From Deltaproteobacteria bacterium (GTDB lineage Bacteria > Desulfobacterota > GWC2-55-46 > UBA9637): a stretch of 64,000 bases of DNA. The stretch lies in assembly GCA_030690165.1 (NCBI GenBank), contig JAUYHF010000007.1, positions 131,420-195,419 of the forward strand, in the 5' to 3' direction. A model generated the notes under the pieces. It saw only the letters and a program-made list of their open reading frames with translations, was not told where the DNA came from and did no database searches. Positions 42,747 through 50,822 of this stretch are shown piece after piece (the first letter of the stretch is position 1; each line of letters starts with the position of its first letter). The translations under genes and the position numbers were made by a program.

Positions 42747-44501
42747 ATGAAAAAAGAAATAACGTTTGTATCAGCAATGATTGTATTCGGGGCAGCTATT
42801 GGTATAGGTATTATATCTATTATAGTTGCAATTGCAGCGCCTGATCTTGTAAAAACACTTTTGACGTTTCAGGAAAAGGCTGATTTTGAGCTGATGCGGC
42901 GAAAGGCCGGCTGGATAATTGAACATATTTATTTCATCAAGTATTCGCTCCTCTTCATAGCAATCTTTACCCTTATCTTGTTTCTCGTAAACTTGAACCC
43001 TCACGTAAAAAATAAGCTGAAGTTAAAATATCCTGGACTAAAATTTCTGGTGATTTTTCTGGGGGTTCTTGCCTGTTTCATTCTTCTGATATTTACCGGC
43101 GATAGAATTTCTAATTTGTTGAATTTTGATATTCAATCGCCGAATGCGGCAAATTTTCTTATTTTCTCATTTACCACAGGACTCTTATGGTTTATTGTTG
43201 GGGAGATGGGCTGGGCAGGCGATTTCTCATCATGGAAGATGGGGGTTGCAGGAGGGGAGAATAGGCCTGTTGCGGCGTTTATTTTAGGAACTGTTGTCGG
43301 CAGCGCTGTCTACGGTCTGTCCTTTCTCTATAATTGGACATTCAATAAGTACTTCATACTGGTTTCAGAGGTGCTTGATCAGTCCGGCGAAACCTCGTAT
43401 CTTGGATTCAAACTCCTGGCACATGAATTGATATTTACGACTGCAATTTCTCTTGGAATCATTGCTGGTCTTATCGTAGCGCTTGCCCCGGTTTACAGGA
43501 CATGGTGCCAGAGATTACAATGGCTTATATTGCCGGTTGCTCTATCGACAGTTCTTGCGGTGGTTATTTTTGCCGTATACACGAATGCCGCAAAAAAATA
43601 TGACCTTGGCAAAAAAGACCTTGCTCAGGCAGCAGGGGTGCCGGATAAGGCAATGGAGAGCCTGACCCTTGTTTTATTAAAGCAGGATATGGCAGCGGTG
43701 CAGGAATGGCCTTTGCAGGCGCGGGGATCGGGTTTTGTTTCCATGAGTACTGTGGCAGCAACTGGAGAAAGCCTCAAGAGGATTGAAGACTACCTTGCTG
43801 AACATAAAGAGGGTTCAGTATTCACCTATGCTGCGCAAGATGCGCTCATAAGAGGACATCATGTGATGTGGAATTTAGAAAAAGGGGTTGAATATCAGTT
43901 TCGGTATGCGGGGCAGTCGTTTCTTAATCGCATGGTGTTACTCTCCCGTCTCCGCTATCTTCCTGTGACTCCAAAGAATCTTGCCTATCTCAAGGCGTTT
44001 TCTGACGAGACCAAGTGGTATGTGGGCAAGGACGCCTGCCTTAGGATTGCGGAGGCATTTATGCATTTTGGAATGACAAAAGAGGCCCAAGACTGGGTAA
44101 ATAAGGGGAAAGAGCGCGGCGCGGATATGTCCAAGGCTGGATTTCTCAAGGATGAAGTTCTTACCCAGGGGAGGATAAAAGGGAGAGTTATTATAAACGG
44201 AATGGCGAATGTCAGCACAAAAGTAGCGCTCATGCGTCAGGATTATAAAATCGATAAGATCGAGGACGGTGCGCTTATTCATAAACTTGTTGATGTCCAG
44301 GGAATCGACAAAGACGGCAGTTTTACATTCAGCAATATAGGGAAGGGGGATTACCTGCTTATTATTGTAGCTGATAAGAATATCATCCCCTATGCTATTG
44401 CGTCTAACAAATTAAAGGTAAAAAATCTCTCAGGTCCTGTAAAGATTGATATAAATAGGCCGACGATGGATTTAGGAACCGTGAACATAGTTACTCAATA
44501 G
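42747..44501 (+). CDS. polytopic membrane protein of unknown function with C-terminal beta-sandwich-like domain
   Basis: About 8 predicted TM helices in the first 300 aa; C-terminal 110 aa resemble a carboxypeptidase-regulatory-like fold; no catalytic motif recognised. Confidence 0.4.
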   Translation: MKKEITFVSAMIVFGAAIGIGIISIIVAIAAPDLVKTLLTFQEKADFELMRRKAGWIIEHIYFIKYSLLFIAIFTLILFLVNLNPHVKNKLKLKYPGLKFLVIFLGVLACFILLIFTGDRISNLLNFDIQSPNAANFLIFSFTTGLLWFIVGEMGWAGDFSSWKMGVAGGENRPVAAFILGTVVGSAVYGLSFLYNWTFNKYFILVSEVLDQSGETSYLGFKLLAHELIFTTAISLGIIAGLIVALAPVYRTWCQRLQWLILPVALSTVLAVVIFAVYTNAAKKYDLGKKDLAQAAGVPDKAMESLTLVLLKQDMAAVQEWPLQARGSGFVSMSTVAATGESLKRIEDYLAEHKEGSVFTYAAQDALIRGHHVMWNLEKGVEYQFRYAGQSFLNRMVLLSRLRYLPVTPKNLAYLKAFSDETKWYVGKDACLRIAEAFMHFGMTKEAQDWVNKGKERGADMSKAGFLKDEVLTQGRIKGRVIINGMANVSTKVALMRQDYKIDKIEDGALIHKLVDVQGIDKDGSFTFSNIGKGDYLLIIVADKNIIPYAIASNKLKVKNLSGPVKIDINRPTMDLGTVNIVTQ

Positions 44502-44546: not shown

Positions 44547-45848
44547 ATGGCCGACAAATTTGACTGCATAATCATTGGCGCCGGTCCTTCCGGCATTGCC
44601 TGCGCATACACTCTGGCAAAGGCAGGGCTGAATGTTATGGTCTTTGAACGGGGAGAATATCCCGGCTCAAAAAATGTCTCAGGCGGGGTTTTGTATTCAA
44701 CCATCCTCAATAAACTCATCCCTGAATTTTGGAAAGATGCGCCTGTGGAAAGGCATGTGGCAAAGCGAAGATATTCCATACTCTCAAAGGATTCTGAGAT
44801 GGCTGTGGAATTAAGTTTTGACAGTTTCAATAACCCTCCCTACAACAACAGCTTCACAGTATTGCGCGCAAAATTTGACAGGTGGTTTGCAAAAAAAGCA
44901 GAGGATGCAGGGGCATTTATATTGACTGAAACAGTGGTCGATGATTTCATCTTTGAGAATGGAAAGATTATCGGGGTTAAGGCGAGGAGGGAGGGTGGCG
45001 ATGTTCTTGCAGATGTGGTTGTTTGCGCAGAAGGCGCAAATTCTCTCCTTGCAGAAAAGGCGGGCCTCAGGAAAAAACCTACAGACCATCAGATGATAAC
45101 CGCTGCCAAAGAGGTCATAAGCCTTCCACGTGAGGCTATAGAAGATAGATTCGGCTTGTCTGATGATGAAGGTGTGACCATAGAGTTTTTCGGCGACGCT
45201 GTTAAAGGGATGATAGGCTCAGGTTTTATCTATACCAATAAAGATTCACTATCCGTTGGTGTTGGCTGTCCCATAGCAGTTATGAAAGAAAATAATATGC
45301 GTCCCAATGATCTTCTTGATGCGTTCAAGTCACATCCGGTGGTAAGAAAGTTTTTAAGGGGAGGGAAGACCGAAGAATTGTCCGCAAAGATGATCCCTGA
45401 ATTGGGCTGCAAGAATCTCTCAAAATTTGCTGCCAATGGTTTACTCATTGTCGGAGATGCGGCAGGTTTGGTAAATCCGTCTCTTTATCGTGAAGGCTCC
45501 AATATGGCGATGGCGTCAGGTGTAATGGCAGCAGAGACGATTCTTGAGGCAAAGAAGAAAAGTAATTTTTCAGAATCGGCGCTGAGCGGGTTTACAAAGA
45601 GATTAAATGACAGCTTCGTTATGAAAGATTTAAAAAGATACGGCGATACGCCGAAGAAGTTATCTGCAATGCCTCAATTTTTCAAAGAATATCCTGATGC
45701 GATTCTAAAAATGGCAGAAGGATATTTCACAATATCAGACATGCCAAAAAAAGAAATGCAGAAACAGGCATGGTCTGCTTTTAAGGACAAGGTCTCTGTA
45801 TGGAGATTTCTGTGGGATATGTATAAGGCAAAGGGGTCGATTCTTTGA
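44547..45848 (+). CDS. fixC: FAD-dependent ETF-quinone oxidoreductase FixC-like
   Basis: FDCIIIGAGPSGIACA FAD fold and GSKNVSGGVLY motif; 433 aa. Confidence 0.75.
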   Translation: MADKFDCIIIGAGPSGIACAYTLAKAGLNVMVFERGEYPGSKNVSGGVLYSTILNKLIPEFWKDAPVERHVAKRRYSILSKDSEMAVELSFDSFNNPPYNNSFTVLRAKFDRWFAKKAEDAGAFILTETVVDDFIFENGKIIGVKARREGGDVLADVVVCAEGANSLLAEKAGLRKKPTDHQMITAAKEVISLPREAIEDRFGLSDDEGVTIEFFGDAVKGMIGSGFIYTNKDSLSVGVGCPIAVMKENNMRPNDLLDAFKSHPVVRKFLRGGKTEELSAKMIPELGCKNLSKFAANGLLIVGDAAGLVNPSLYREGSNMAMASGVMAAETILEAKKKSNFSESALSGFTKRLNDSFVMKDLKRYGDTPKKLSAMPQFFKEYPDAILKMAEGYFTISDMPKKEMQKQAWSAFKDKVSVWRFLWDMYKAKGSIL

Positions 45849-45902
45849 CAGGCCTCGGCAGATTCTGGGATTCGTGTAACAATAATGTATAAAACAAACA
45901 TC

Positions 45903-45930
45903 TTGTTTAAAACAGGTTGTTTGATATAAT
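45903..45930 (+). promoter_or_regulatory. sigma-70-like promoter with extended -10 for the antitoxin gene
   Basis: TTGTTT, 16-nt spacer, TGATATAAT; RBS AAAGGAGG 45937-45944 before ATG 45950. Confidence 0.4.
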
Positions 45931-45949
45931 CTCCCAAAAGGAGGCAACA

Positions 45950-46180
45950 ATGGTTAAGACATTGCATGCAGTCTATGAACATGGGATATTGAGGCCTTTG
46001 GAGCCGATAGACGATATTGAGGAGAACGCAGAAGTAGAATTGACTCTGAGCATAGAAAAGAAAGTCATTCATCCTATTTTAAGGTTTGCCGGCATATTGA
46101 AGGAAGAAGAGGCAAATCAGATGATGAAGACCGTAGACGATGAGTTTGAGAGGGTTAATCCTGATGAATGGAAAGATTAG
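45950..46180 (+). CDS. small antitoxin-like protein, probable VapB-type partner of the PIN toxin
   Basis: 76 aa; MVKTLHAVYEHGILRPLEP ... AEVELT pattern; overlaps the downstream PIN ORF. Confidence 0.5.
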   Translation: MVKTLHAVYEHGILRPLEPIDDIEENAEVELTLSIEKKVIHPILRFAGILKEEEANQMMKTVDDEFERVNPDEWKD

Positions 46181-46455
46181 CCTTGACACAAATATCGTAA
46201 TACGGCTGTTTAAAAATGATAAAGCTGTTACAAATCTCCTTTCGCGTAACTCAACGATATATCTGCATCCTGAATATTACAAGAAAGACAGCCGATCCAT
46301 ATTCTGCCATCAGATTACAGCTAAAACAAAAAGGGCGTCCAATCCCTGAAAATGACCTATGGATAGCGGCAGTCTGTATTGAAAACAGTCTTCCAATAAT
46401 CACGGCCGATGCGCATTTTGATGACGTTGATGGGTTGGAGGTTGTCAAAATATAA
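46164..46455 (+). pseudogene. PIN-domain (VapC-like) toxin, frameshifted and shortened
   Basis: N-terminal part (ISLDTNIVIRL) is in one frame to 46349; C-terminal part (ENDLWIAAVCIENSLPIITADAHFDDVDGLEV) is in the +1 frame to 46455; combined length about 97 aa is short for PIN. Confidence 0.5.
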
Positions 46456-46632
46456 ATGTTAGTAACGAAGGGCTGAGACTATGCCCGCCAAATGCGGAAA
46501 CGATGATGGAAGAGGGCAAAAGGAATATAGAAGGGCTGGTGGAGAGGTCCAATTTCTTTTTTAGCTATAGAATAAGCTGGTACTTTGATATAGAATGGAG
46601 AAAAATACTAATAATTTAGGGGGTGATTTATA

Positions 46633-46815
46633 ATGAGAGCCACTGCACAAAAAGTTAATCCAGAGGATTTTATCCTTTCGGCCCTTTCTCCAGAGGATCG
46701 GCTCGATGCGGCATTTGAGATTGCTCGCGAGGCGTTCAAAAAGACTCGTTTGACAATGAAAGATATTGATAATGCGGTTAAATCAGTAAGGAGCAAGGCT
46801 TACGAAAAGTTGTAG
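46633..46815 (+). CDS. small orphan addiction-module antitoxin-like protein
   Basis: 60 aa; LSALSPEDRLDAAFEIA resembles a putative addiction-module component family; RBS AGGGGGTG; no toxin follows. Confidence 0.3.
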   Translation: MRATAQKVNPEDFILSALSPEDRLDAAFEIAREAFKKTRLTMKDIDNAVKSVRSKAYEKL

Positions 46816-46856
46816 GGTGGTCACAGCCCACCGGATAAGGAATACAGCATGGATTA

Positions 46857-46941
46857 GGGAGAGGTTCCGCAGGGATGGTGAAGGATAAAGGGATTGGGGT
46901 TGCGATGGTGGAGGGGGATAAGATAGTCACCTGTTTTTATC
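46857..46941. repeat. 85-bp direct repeat, copy A
   Basis: GGGAGAGGTTCCGCAGGGATGGTGAAGGATAAAGGGATTGGGGTTGCGA ... TTTTTATC; about 50-nt core nearly identical to 47687-47768. Confidence 0.7.
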
Positions 46942-47001
46942 ATTTTTGAAACAATAATTTTTAGATATAGTGCTAACAAAGATATTATTAGGAGGTGTCC
47001 T

Positions 47002-47277
47002 ATGACGGTCATTGATTTGGTGGCAAAAGAATTTCATATGAACCCCAAAGAGGTTATAAAGGAAAGCATCGGCACGTATCTGCATCAGAAATTGTCGAAA
47101 GTTGAGGCAGACATCTTCACAATTGCTAAGAAACACGGCGTAAAAGATGTTTTTGAACTTGATGAAAAAATAAAAAAGGGGCTTATCAGCGAAAAGGATT
47201 CATATGATGACTATTTTGCCCTTGACAATCTTGAAGCGGAAAGGGAAAGGACCAAGAAGCTTCTGGAGAAAATTTGA
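47002..47277 (+). CDS. small acidic protein, first gene of a two-gene cassette
   Basis: 91 aa; strong RBS AGGAGG; stop overlaps next start (TGATG). Confidence 0.4.
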   Translation: MTVIDLVAKEFHMNPKEVIKESIGTYLHQKLSKVEADIFTIAKKHGVKDVFELDEKIKKGLISEKDSYDDYFALDNLEAERERTKKLLEKI

Positions 47278-47636
47278 TGCCTTCAATCCACGATCTGGAG
47301 AGGATTGCTGAGATAGAATTCGCTGACATTGTAGCCGGGACTATATTTATTAACCACAAGCTTAGAATATTTCTGACAGATAGCAGCTTTATAGATGTCA
47401 ACCTTTCGCAGAGGCTCCCAGATAAATTCGGTTTCCATTGGGAACGAATGAATAAGGCCGGCGAGGTATTCCGCTACGATAATTTCCCTGATCCAAGCTG
47501 GAAGAATGTCAGCACCTATCCATACCACTTTCATAACAGCGCACAAGAAGGAGTAGAGGCGGCACCTTTTCCGTTGGATGTCATAAAAGGTTTCAGGGCG
47601 TTCATGGAATTTGTTAGAAATAAAGTAAAGGAATGA
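47274..47636 (+). CDS. uncharacterized protein with FHWE ... RYDN ... HFH motifs, putative toxin-like partner
   Basis: 120 aa; translationally coupled to the upstream ORF; family assignment from memory only. Confidence 0.4.
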   Translation: MMPSIHDLERIAEIEFADIVAGTIFINHKLRIFLTDSSFIDVNLSQRLPDKFGFHWERMNKAGEVFRYDNFPDPSWKNVSTYPYHFHNSAQEGVEAAPFPLDVIKGFRAFMEFVRNKVKE

Positions 47637-47686
47637 AAGAGAGTTGGCTGGGATTGCCAGCAGGATGAGAGATATAGAAGGACAGA

Positions 47687-47768
47687 GGGAGAGGTTACGC
47701 AGGGATGGTGAAGGATAAAGGGTTGGGGTTGCGAGGGGTGAGAAGAGTAATCGGTTACGTTTTTTATC
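47687..47768. repeat. 85-bp direct repeat, copy B
   Basis: GGGAGAGGTTACGCAGGGATGGTGAAGGATAAAGGGTTGGGGTTGCGA ... TTTTTTATC. Confidence 0.7.
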
Positions 47769-47777
47769 TAAAAAATT

Positions 47778-48572
47778 ATGAAAACTGAAGAAGATAAATT
47801 TAAACACGAAATAGATATTTTCCGAACTGAAGTCGAATCTGGCATACAATTCTTCTATATGTATCTGGCATTTAATTCCGTCCTTAGTAAGAATAAACAA
47901 GCTCTAAAAATAGTAAATCGAACGCCTTTATTTTGGAACACGAATGTTGGTGCTCTACAGACCTCTTTTTTTATCGTATTGGGACGACTTTTTGACCAAA
48001 ACTCCAACCACAATGTTGATAGGTTGATAGGAGTTGCCCAAAAGCATTCTGATATTTTTTCTGCAGAGGCATTGGAAGTTCGTAAGCGAGCAGGGAGTGC
48101 AAATGCAGGTGAATGGATAAATGACTACATGAAAGACGTTTATGTCCCAACTAACGATGACTTCAGACGCCTGAGAAAATATGTTAGCAAGTATCGCAAA
48201 ATTTATGAGAACACATATCGGGATATAAGGCACAAGGTATATGCTCATAAAGTGCTATCAAATAAGGCTGATGTGCATAATTTATTTGCACGGACCAACA
48301 TTCGTGAAATACAAAAACTATTGATTTTTCTGAATCGAGTTCATGAAGCTCTTTGGCAACTTTTCCATAATGGTCGCAAACCTACATTGAGGGCAATGAA
48401 ATACTCAGTCAGTAGTATTATGAAAAATGTTCTGGCTCCAGAATGGCAAAGCCGACAGATTCAAGAACTGGTGGTGCATGAGACCCAAAAGTTTTTCGAC
48501 ATATTATTATCTATACCCAATAAGCGAGAACAGGAAAAGGACAGGACACTCTACAGGTTGAAGGAACAGTAA
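47778..48572 (+). CDS. uncharacterized protein, possible HEPN-like (Abi-type) defence protein
   Basis: 264 aa, mostly helical; R-x5-H motif RDIRHKVYAH; sits in an accessory islet; assignment tentative. Confidence 0.35.
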   Translation: MKTEEDKFKHEIDIFRTEVESGIQFFYMYLAFNSVLSKNKQALKIVNRTPLFWNTNVGALQTSFFIVLGRLFDQNSNHNVDRLIGVAQKHSDIFSAEALEVRKRAGSANAGEWINDYMKDVYVPTNDDFRRLRKYVSKYRKIYENTYRDIRHKVYAHKVLSNKADVHNLFARTNIREIQKLLIFLNRVHEALWQLFHNGRKPTLRAMKYSVSSIMKNVLAPEWQSRQIQELVVHETQKFFDILLSIPNKREQEKDRTLYRLKEQ

Positions 48573-48664
48573 TGGTGACTGACCTAATAGAAAAACAAAC
48601 AAGGAGTAATAAAAAATCTAAAACTTACTGGAAGAACTAATACAACCATGCTTACACTGATTCT

Positions 48665-48970
48665 ATGAGCCAATTTGAACAAATATTACAACCACTTGAA
48701 CCCAAAACCCTTGAGGAAAAGCTCTATCTTGTCAGGTTCAAAACTGATACAGAGAGCCATTTGAAGGTTGACTCTGAGAAATGCAGGGTTTGTAAAGATA
48801 AAGGTTGTATCTATATCTGTCCGGCAGATGTTTACAAAATGGATGAGAAGGAGAATATCGTAATCTCTTTTGAGGCGTGTCTTGAATGCGGCACTTGCAG
48901 GATTGCATGTGATTTTATAGAATGGAAAAATCCAAAGGGCGGGTATGGGGTGTGTTATAGATATGGATAA
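48665..48970 (+). CDS. fixX: ferredoxin-like protein FixX
   Basis: CRVCKDKGCIYICP and CLECGTCRIAC cysteine clusters; C-terminal YRYG; 101 aa. Confidence 0.75.
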   Translation: MSQFEQILQPLEPKTLEEKLYLVRFKTDTESHLKVDSEKCRVCKDKGCIYICPADVYKMDEKENIVISFEACLECGTCRIACDFIEWKNPKGGYGVCYRYG

Positions 48971-49009
48971 GACAGGTTATAGGCTATGGGCAAGAGGCGA
49001 TAGGAAAAT

Positions 49010-50256: not shown

Positions 50257-50350
50257 CACTACACTCTGTGTTGTGGTGTTTAAATAGTTTATTGAAAAGG
50301 TTTGAATATAAAGCCCTTATAATGTAAAATTGCAAGAAAAGGAGACGTTC

Positions 50351-50575
50351 ATGCCAACAACACAGAAACAAAAAGATATAGTGTATGTCAAACAGTATGT
50401 AACCGATGCAAAAGGGCATAAGATGGCTGCTATTCTTGATATAAAAGAATTGGCAAGAGTCCAAGAGCTGCTGGAAGACCTTGCAGATCTGAAGGCAATT
50501 GAAGAAAGGGTGTGCGAAAAGGAAGAAAGTTACGAGGCATACAGCCGAAAGAGAAAGTCTTCCCTCCATGTATAA
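50351..50575 (+). CDS. antitoxin of a RelE/ParE-type toxin-antitoxin module
   Basis: 74 aa from ATG 50351 (RBS AAAAGGAG); stop overlaps the toxin start by 8 nt (ATGTATAA). Confidence 0.5.
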   Translation: MPTTQKQKDIVYVKQYVTDAKGHKMAAILDIKELARVQELLEDLADLKAIEERVCEKEESYEAYSRKRKSSLHV

Positions 50576-50822
50576 ACTCGTCATCAAAAACTCTGCAAAG
50601 AAAGAGCTCGACGATATTCCTGCTGCTCAATTCTTAAAGATTGATGCCGCAATTCTGTTATTAAAGACAAATCCGCATCCATTTCCACAGTCAAAAAAAC
50701 TAAAAGGTTAAGACAAGTGCCGGCTTCGTGTGGGTGACTACAGGGTTGTTTACGCTGTTGATGAAAAAGAGAAGAACATAACAATCTATCGGATACGTCA
50801 TAGAAAAGAGGTTTACCGCTAA
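50568..50822 (+). pseudogene. RelE/ParE-family toxin interrupted by an in-frame TAA (50709-50711)
   Basis: MYKLVIKNSAKKELDDIP ... SKKLKG-stop-DKCRLRVGDYRVVYAVDEKEKNITIYRIRHRKEVYR; both halves in the same frame and together match RelE/ParE. Confidence 0.6.

Follow-up and report, generated by a model that had tools for sequence, protein, structure and literature searches.

AbiU2-family gene between fixC-like and fixX-like genes

The window analysed here is a 64,000-nt stretch of contig JAUYHF010000007.1 (positions 131,420 to 195,419 of the forward strand) from the metagenome-assembled genome (MAG) of a Deltaproteobacteria bacterium, and coordinates without a locus label refer to it. A real open reading frame (ORF), running from ATG to TAA at 47778-48572 on the + strand, encodes a protein of 264 amino acids (aa) whose match to a family profile places it among the AbiU2 HEPN-domain proteins, as a stand-alone member. 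The NCBI entry that is 100% identical to it (P0001) is labelled "hypothetical protein Q8P28_02170" and comes from a Deltaproteobacteria bacterium MAG, on a 258,792-bp contig. Four small modules separate a fixC-like from a fixX-like gene, and the AbiU2 gene is the final one. The gene and the two regions of its product that carry the assignment are as follows.

47778..48572, + strand: AbiU2-family HEPN protein gene; confirmed ORF, 264 aa plus stop codon
47925..47996, + strand: predicted HEPN core helix 2 (residues 50-72) and GRxFD motif with R70 and the conserved acidic D73, placed by model helix H50-72 and by conservation
48228..48248, + strand: Rx5H predicted catalytic motif R151-H152-K153-V154-Y155-A156-H157, placed by conservation in 44 divergent relatives

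Comparison with Pfam by hmmscan gave one real match, HEPN_AbiU2 (PF18734, E = 2.6e-21), whose score of 76.4 bits is nearly three times the curated gathering cut-off of the family (26.8 bits), with residues 6-199 of the protein aligned to profile positions 2-175 of 193. PF18734 is also carried by all 120 homologs listed, and every HEPN_AbiU2 feature that could be tested is present in the 264-aa protein. The first-pass annotation, made from the letters of the DNA, had described a possible HEPN/Abi-like (Abi, abortive infection) protein that it could not place in a named family; the profile search bears out this description and supplies the name, and no non-HEPN profile was assigned. No Pfam match was obtained to HEPN-MNT, to RnlA/LsoA-type or to the other single-gene HEPN Abi families (AbiD/AbiF, AbiJ, AbiV). 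An hhalign comparison of the AbiU2 family profile with the AbiJ-type protein encoded beside one homolog (locus L001, below) returned a probability of 0.1 and is uninformative, the template consisting of a single sequence only. The gene is a previously unannotated member of a known family, and a "hypothetical protein" now has a confident family assignment.

Conserved residues and predicted fold

In catalytically competent HEPN domains, the Arg of the Rx4-6H motif is followed by a polar residue (N, D or H), and an acidic residue in helix 2, close to this motif, is typical of HEPN families (Anantharaman et al. 2013, PMC3710099). In the 264-aa protein, five residues separate R151 (codon AGG, 48228-48230) from H157 (codon CAT, 48246-48248) within the peptide YRDIRHKVYAH. 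The bare motif is not above chance in this protein, which contains 21 Arg and 9 His: when its residues were shuffled 5,000 times, an Rx4-6H arose at least once in 89% of the permutations and 2.1 times on average. The motif is meaningful because it is conserved, not because of its spacing. None of R151, A156 and H157 varies among 26 close homologs (51-83% identity), and they are retained in 43, 41 and all 44, respectively, of 44 divergent representatives (28-44% identity); in 39 of these 44, the Arg is immediately followed by N, H or D, at position 152. In the same set, the columns W53, F94 and H157 are invariant, and at least 90% of the sequences keep R70 (43/44), F72, D73 (41/44), R102, R140, R151, A156, N198 and G199. 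Judged by sequence, the polar residue after the Arg and the conservation of the Rx5H are the signature described for catalytically competent HEPN domains. The R-x5-H on which the first-pass annotation had relied is the conserved Rx4-6H motif of the AbiU2 family; the pair of residues is real and conserved, but the spacing, which had been taken as evidence in itself, is expected by chance.

An AlphaFold2 model built on the alignment of 26 sequences is entirely helical, in agreement with the helical protein expected at first pass, and has 13 helices by DSSP, a mean predicted local distance difference test (pLDDT) score of 82.4 and a predicted template modelling (pTM) score of 0.77. A helix of residues 50-72 is followed by D73, a partly helical insert (73-125) and a long helix (126-155), at the end of which R151 is placed; H157 is placed at the start of a low-confidence loop (156-162), which leads into a kinked helix (163-171 and 175-198). 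The pLDDT is only 59-66 around residues 150-170, and D73 is placed by helix order in the model, not by its distance to R151 and H157. HEPN domains have been described with an insert between helices 2 and 3 (PMC3710099), and the modelled order of the motif, the helix-2 acidic residue and the helix 2-3 insert fits the published four-helix topology; the predicted fold is HEPN-like, with the R-x5-H in a position that matches the description. Foldseek with the model against the PDB and against viral structures returned nothing at E ≤ 0.001, and a family-profile search of PDB sequences was empty even at E ≤ 10; therefore no close relative of the family has a solved structure.

Against three close homologs, from which the gene differs by a synonymous divergence (dS) of 0.18-0.37, the ratio of nonsynonymous to synonymous divergence (dN/dS) is 0.39-0.51, which points to purifying selection that is relaxed, as commonly seen in genes of this type. 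The GC content of the gene is about 0.38, compared with 0.43-0.48 in the flanking core genes. No Shine-Dalgarno sequence precedes the ATG (47760-47780), and a conserved A/T near-palindrome, TTTTTTATCTAAAAAA, lies directly before it. Together, these two observations could mean leaderless or A-rich initiation, or an operator.

The fixC-fixX islet

The genes around the islet are core chromosomal genes, encoding SelB, a SelD-like AIRS protein, a thiolase and a 3-hydroxyacyl-CoA dehydrogenase. Between the FixC-like and FixX-like genes lie an AF2212-like antitoxin, a PIN protein and a TumE-family toxin, which substantiates the earlier description of an accessory islet with toxin-antitoxin (TA) modules.

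44547..45848, + strand: FixC-like FAD-dependent oxidoreductase, left border of the islet; Pfam DAO and FAD_binding, weak ETFQO_UQ-bd
45917-46180, + strand: AF2212-like antitoxin; PF01954, E = 2.9e-07
46140-46349 and 46216-46455, + strand: PIN (VapC-like) toxin in two overlapping frames; PF01850 on the second ORF only, C-terminal half
46633-46815: orphan 60-aa ORF, an islet module
47002-47277, + strand: 91-aa putative TumA-like antitoxin, overlapping the TumE ORF by 4 nt
47274-47636, + strand: TumE-family toxin; PF20126, E = 1e-12
48665..48970, + strand: FixX-like ferredoxin, right border of the islet; Pfam Fer4_ETF_QO

The split of the PIN gene (46140-46455) reflects either a frameshift that has made it a pseudogene or a mistake in the assembly. 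No AbiU1/AbiUi-like gene, MNT antitoxin or large ORF is present in the islet. Neither a sigma-70-like promoter nor a terminator was predicted between TumE and AbiU2, so that co-transcription is possible, and the AbiU2 gene may be expressed together with the upstream TumA-like/TumE pair. In a related metagenomic contig (L088), an AbiU2 gene whose product is 88% identical is likewise followed by fixX (87% identical), but the upstream module (L088 1-1500) is a different one, ending in a PIN-like C-terminus in place of the TumE module; AbiU2 was therefore retained at the junction while the rest of the islet turned over.

Two further observations were made near the islet. The thiolase and 3-hydroxyacyl-CoA dehydrogenase genes are themselves separated by another small TA-like insertion (50330-50711), in which a RelB-like antitoxin (50330-50575) overlaps a short ORF at 50499-50711 that has no Pfam match and looks like a truncated RelE/ParE-type toxin. 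Directly upstream of the FixC-like gene, where etfAB/fixAB might have been expected, stands a 584-aa ORF (42747-44501) with several predicted hydrophobic segments and no Pfam match at E ≤ 1e-5.

Distribution of the subfamily and contexts of its homologs

An exhaustive profile search of 1.84 billion representatives, with relatives counted as representative clusters at 50% identity, found 1,311 clusters with E ≤ 0.001, of which 412 reach E ≤ 1e-30. Almost all of the proteins in these clusters are 230-270 aa long and match end to end, and the subfamily is stand-alone and single-domain. It shares with PF18734 the Rx4-6H with its polar residue and the all-helical HEPN topology (Anantharaman et al. 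2013, PMC3710099), and differs from it by a conserved C-terminal extension of about 65 residues past the Pfam model, introduced by a W193...N198-G199-x-K201 turn.

When one genome for each GTDB species (185,579 in all) was scanned with pattern seeds, 76 loci were recovered, a lower bound because only proteins that contain one of two peptide patterns exactly are detected; they come from Deltaproteobacteria/Thermodesulfobacteriota, Nitrospirota, Alpha-, Beta- and Gammaproteobacteria, Acidobacteriota, Planctomycetota, Gemmatimonadota, Babeliaceae, Candidate Phyla Radiation (CPR) lineages and one archaeal MAG. Identities of 54-66% are maintained across phyla, among Deltaproteobacteria, Nitrospirota, Gammaproteobacteria, Planctomycetota, CPR lineages and the archaeal MAG, which implies horizontal spread of the family; its distribution is patchy. 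No tblastn match to the protein was found in 50,697 phage records, and a phage-borne origin is therefore unsupported.

The neighbours of the homologs are not conserved. When up to three ORFs on either side of the homolog were clustered by BLAST across 74 loci, the only shared neighbour was one mobile element, present in three of them, and in a Pfam census of 136 immediate neighbours at these loci no family occurred more than three times; on both counts, a conserved partner gene was rejected. A TA-like small gene pair lies directly upstream of the homolog in 7 of 64 loci and directly downstream in 3 of 63, and a tripartite operon of a TA pair and AbiU2 was rejected as a general rule. TA, defence or mobility genes (HicA, TumE, YhaV, AbiJ_NTD5, Imm proteins, integrases, methylases) are often found in the contexts, which range from purely housekeeping to clearly accessory, as in the following loci.

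L001 995-6541 (contig_1949, uncultured delta proteobacterium MAG): co-directional WapI, Imm8, Imm44 and HEAT-repeat immunity proteins
L003: homolog between the housekeeping genes for AhpC and RF-1
L005: HicA toxin gene near the homolog
L008: TumE toxin gene near the homolog
L093 4125-5750 (Bradyrhizobium betae conjugative plasmid pBbPL7HG1): PrlF/YhaV pair directly upstream, methylase and integrases nearby
Cupriavidus metallidurans pMOL28: integrase, methyltransferase and endonuclease near the homolog

The L001 homolog is 63% identical to the 264-aa protein and is directly followed by the gene for an AbiJ_NTD5 protein, with a tyrosine integrase nearby; the array looks like a polyimmunity or defence island. 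On the Bradyrhizobium plasmid, the PrlF-YhaV pair is separated by 31 nt from a 40%-identical homolog that RefSeq labels a hypothetical protein, and the PrlF-YhaV-AbiU2 arrangement of three genes is seen again in contigs of Nitrobacter and other MAGs (L056, L057 and L082).

Conserved flanks and a purine-rich repeat

The DNA similarity between the window and close homologs that stand in other contexts (L085 and L089) extends beyond the AbiU2 ORF, by about 140 nt upstream and about 70 nt downstream, and the upstream part contains one copy of a purine-rich repeat of about 110 nt. Three copies of the repeat occur in the window, all inside the islet.

46520..46551, + strand: partial repeat copy A, downstream of the PIN gene; weak, nhmmer E = 0.054
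46815..46934, + strand: repeat copy B, between the orphan 60-aa ORF and the TumA-like/TumE module; nhmmer E = 2.3e-29
47637..47777, + strand: conserved non-coding region upstream of AbiU2, with repeat copy C and TTTTTTATCTAAAAAA; aligns with the upstream regions of L085 and L089
47650-47762, + strand: repeat copy C, before AbiU2; purine-rich, about 110 nt
48573..48645, + strand: conserved 3' flank of about 70 nt, alignable with L088, L085 and L089; beyond it, L085 and L089 diverge

Copies B and C are 94-96% identical over 50-53 nt by blastn, and copies A and B were also picked up by find_repeats. The repeat also occurs at L085 2798-2917 and L089 1498-1606, upstream of AbiU2 in each, and at L091 1-90. 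The context of L085 comprises ribosomal protein genes and a helix-turn-helix (HTH)/M78-peptidase pair, and that of L089 an HTH-Panacea antitoxin and its partner. Scanning metagenomes for the core of the repeat yielded just two contigs from a single groundwater sample; in one of them, L091, the repeat lies beside MNT and PIN genes.

Several identities for the upstream element were considered and rejected. It has no match in Rfam, its predicted RNA folding is not significant (z = -0.79) and the consensus forms only a 5-bp 5' hairpin, on which grounds a structured RNA or riboswitch was set aside. A small leader ORF beginning MVKDKG is conserved in neither length nor frame: it encodes 27 aa in one of two copies in the window, 24 aa in the other and 7 aa in L089, and is fused in frame in L085. 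In that last locus, the 298-aa gene call P0008 has 28-34 extra N-terminal residues (L085 2858-2941) read through in frame from the repeat; the conserved start is the methionine of MKTKE, and the extension is therefore probably a gene-calling artefact. No sigma-70-like promoter was found in 47637-47777, no terminator lies between the element and the AbiU2 ATG, and the only tandem repeat in 45800-49000 is an 8-nt duplication inside the AbiU2 ORF; a type III TA system, with an RNA antitoxin encoded by an array of short tandem repeats upstream and a terminator before the ATG, was rejected on this basis. An attC site was rejected as well, the repeats being purine-rich on one strand and non-palindromic, with single-stranded DNA folds limited to local hairpins of 5-6 bp (z = +0.75 and +0.09 for the two strands of copy B, and +0.9 for the 3' flank). 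By the attC criterion the unit is not an integron cassette, intI elsewhere in the window not having been searched for.

The identity of the flanks is about the level predicted from synonymous divergence, and therefore the flanks need not be under selection; their similarity may simply reflect recent common descent of the unit of about 1 kb. It is a speculative and rather improbable proposal that AbiU2 resides in a cassette-like unit of about 1 kb (140 nt, ORF and 70 nt) found in at least three genomic contexts in a groundwater lineage, with the repeat serving as the junction or recombination site of an undescribed, non-integron shuffling of TA and defence modules, or as a shared cis-regulatory leader of partner-less toxins such as AbiU2.

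Comparison with known HEPN systems

The family takes its name from AbiUii of Lactococcus lactis, a predicted HEPN protein that accompanies AbiUi in the AbiU system (Dai et al. 2001, as given in PMC13064643). AbiUi, the large nuclease-like resistance determinant of that system, has no counterpart in the islet, and since no AbiU1 stands beside the gene, the locus is not an AbiU system. A tblastn search of the protein against 72,556 plasmids gave no lactococcal match at E ≤ 1e-3, so that the relation to AbiUii is at profile level only. The operon partners reported for the AbiU2 family, namely Sel1-repeat proteins, restriction-modification genes and the Bxe_C0808 HEPN, are absent here and do not recur in the 74 loci.

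HNPBCG_15845 of Vibrio mimicus MB461 is likewise a single small AbiU2 HEPN gene; the Vibrio protein is predicted to be dimeric, and its gene, which has been connected with resistance to T4 and T7, is mobile. Whereas attC sites mark the Vibrio gene as a genuine integron cassette, the present one is accompanied by purine-rich, non-palindromic repeats, and the two proteins are likened by description only. Vpc_cass2, an integron-cassette HEPN protein of solved structure (PDB 3jrt), shares 9% sequence identity with the 264-aa protein and belongs to a different HEPN family according to PMC3710099. HEPN-MNT, RnlA/LsoA-type TA, AbiD/AbiF, AbiJ and AbiV proteins belong to the same superfamily, have the same predicted chemistry and also occur in TA or defence islets. 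The single-gene Abi proteins among them (AbiD/AbiF, AbiJ, AbiV) are similarly without a protein antidote; the HEPN-MNT pair differs, as no MNT or other cognate antitoxin adjoins the AbiU2 gene.

Possible function and alternative explanations

With moderate confidence, the 264-aa protein can be regarded as a latent, dimeric, metal-independent RNase acting in abortive infection. On the basis of the HEPN chemistry set out in PMC3710099, the two R151/H157 motifs of a homodimer would form a composite metal-independent endoribonuclease site, in which H157 would activate the 2'-OH and R151 would stabilise the transition state or bind the backbone, and RNA cleavage would leave 2',3'-cyclic phosphate ends. 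In uninfected cells the extra helices at its two termini, or a low level of expression, may hold the protein inactive; a phage cue would activate it, and the activated protein would cleave cellular or phage RNA, halting phage multiplication. We infer the RNase and homodimer step from established HEPN biology (PMC3710099) and the latent, phage-triggered role in phage defence from the genomic context and one preprint. It is reported there that an AbiU2 HEPN domain is encoded by a Vibrio mimicus integron cassette found enriched in 94% of phage-screen survivors and that this cassette, cloned with adjacent cassettes, gave resistance to T4 and T7 (bioRxiv 10.64898/2026.03.17.712381).

Several points weigh against this interpretation. 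The V. mimicus cassette could not be cloned alone, and the phenotype is not cleanly that of one gene (bioRxiv 10.64898/2026.03.17.712381). Lactococcal AbiUii was not a resistance determinant and lowered the resistance given by AbiUi, as described in PMC13064643, and it was not toxic in Escherichia coli (PMC3985639). The literature searched contains no demonstration of RNA cleavage, no biochemical data and no solved structure for any AbiU2-family protein. No family among the PADLOC-DB v2 defence models matches the protein, even at E ≤ 10, and the NCBIfam and PHROGs libraries gave no usable match. Some homologs lie between housekeeping genes without any defence context, and the dimerisation and the trigger are purely conjectural steps.

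An abortive-infection RNase is not the only role that such a gene could have. It could encode the toxin of an addiction (TA-type) module that lacks a conserved neighbouring protein antidote and stabilises the islet or mobile DNA rather than defending against phages; the antidote could then be an RNA from the upstream non-coding region, or the protein could inhibit itself through one of its own parts. The position of the gene among TA modules, the homologs adjoining PrlF/YhaV on conjugative plasmids, the roughly 140 nt upstream and 70 nt downstream that travel with the gene between contexts, and the Vibrio cassette, which was clonable only with an ORF-less cassette and another cassette, are all in keeping with such a module. 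However, the upstream region has neither tandem repeats, an Rfam match, significant RNA structure nor a conserved small ORF and is shared by very close relatives only, although the protein family is widespread; the flank identity requires no selection at the dS observed, and the lactococcal protein was non-toxic. We consider an addiction toxin unlikely on balance. The protein could also be a non-lethal modulator like AbiUii, tuning another system or binding RNA without killing, as AbiUii gave no resistance itself, lowered that mediated by AbiUi and was non-toxic in E. coli. Yet neither an AbiU1-like nor any other conserved partner stands beside the gene or its relatives, the predicted catalytic R and H are almost invariant, which argues for retained enzymatic activity, and it was the single AbiU2-domain cassette that was enriched in the phage-survival screen; a modulator is accordingly judged to be quite unlikely.

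Two other explanations appear far less probable. A housekeeping RNA-processing enzyme, or another core function, might be proposed from the homologs that lie between core genes and from the retention of AbiU2 beside fixX in L088 at a divergence similar to that of FixX itself, but it is very hard to reconcile with a patchy, cross-phylum distribution at 54-66% identity, with the mere 76 loci (as a lower bound) recovered by the scan of species genomes, with neighbours that are never conserved, with the GC content below that of the flanking core genes, and with the location inside a TA islet that interrupts fixC-fixX. Equally slight is the probability that the protein is not an RNase and instead confers immunity against the incoming toxin of a competitor, as might be suggested by the 63%-identical L001 homolog, which lies inside an array of predicted immunity proteins beside an integrase. 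That array is one locus of 74, no Imm family recurs in the others, no polymorphic-toxin gene lies near the AbiU2 gene in the window, and the conservation of the full Rx4-6H signature points to catalysis.

Significance for the AbiU2 family

To a specialist, a protein of this kind in a TA islet of an environmental deltaproteobacterial MAG would otherwise come as no surprise, and the 264-aa protein is in that respect fairly ordinary. The comparison presents a large cross-phylum AbiU2 subfamily as a single-gene unit without a partner and pinpoints residues that can be mutated, namely R151 and H157, and also D73, R70, R102, R140 and N198/G199. For a family with no structure, no shown RNase activity and one phage-resistance preprint, a compact, solitary member such as this one is a reasonable first candidate for biochemical work.

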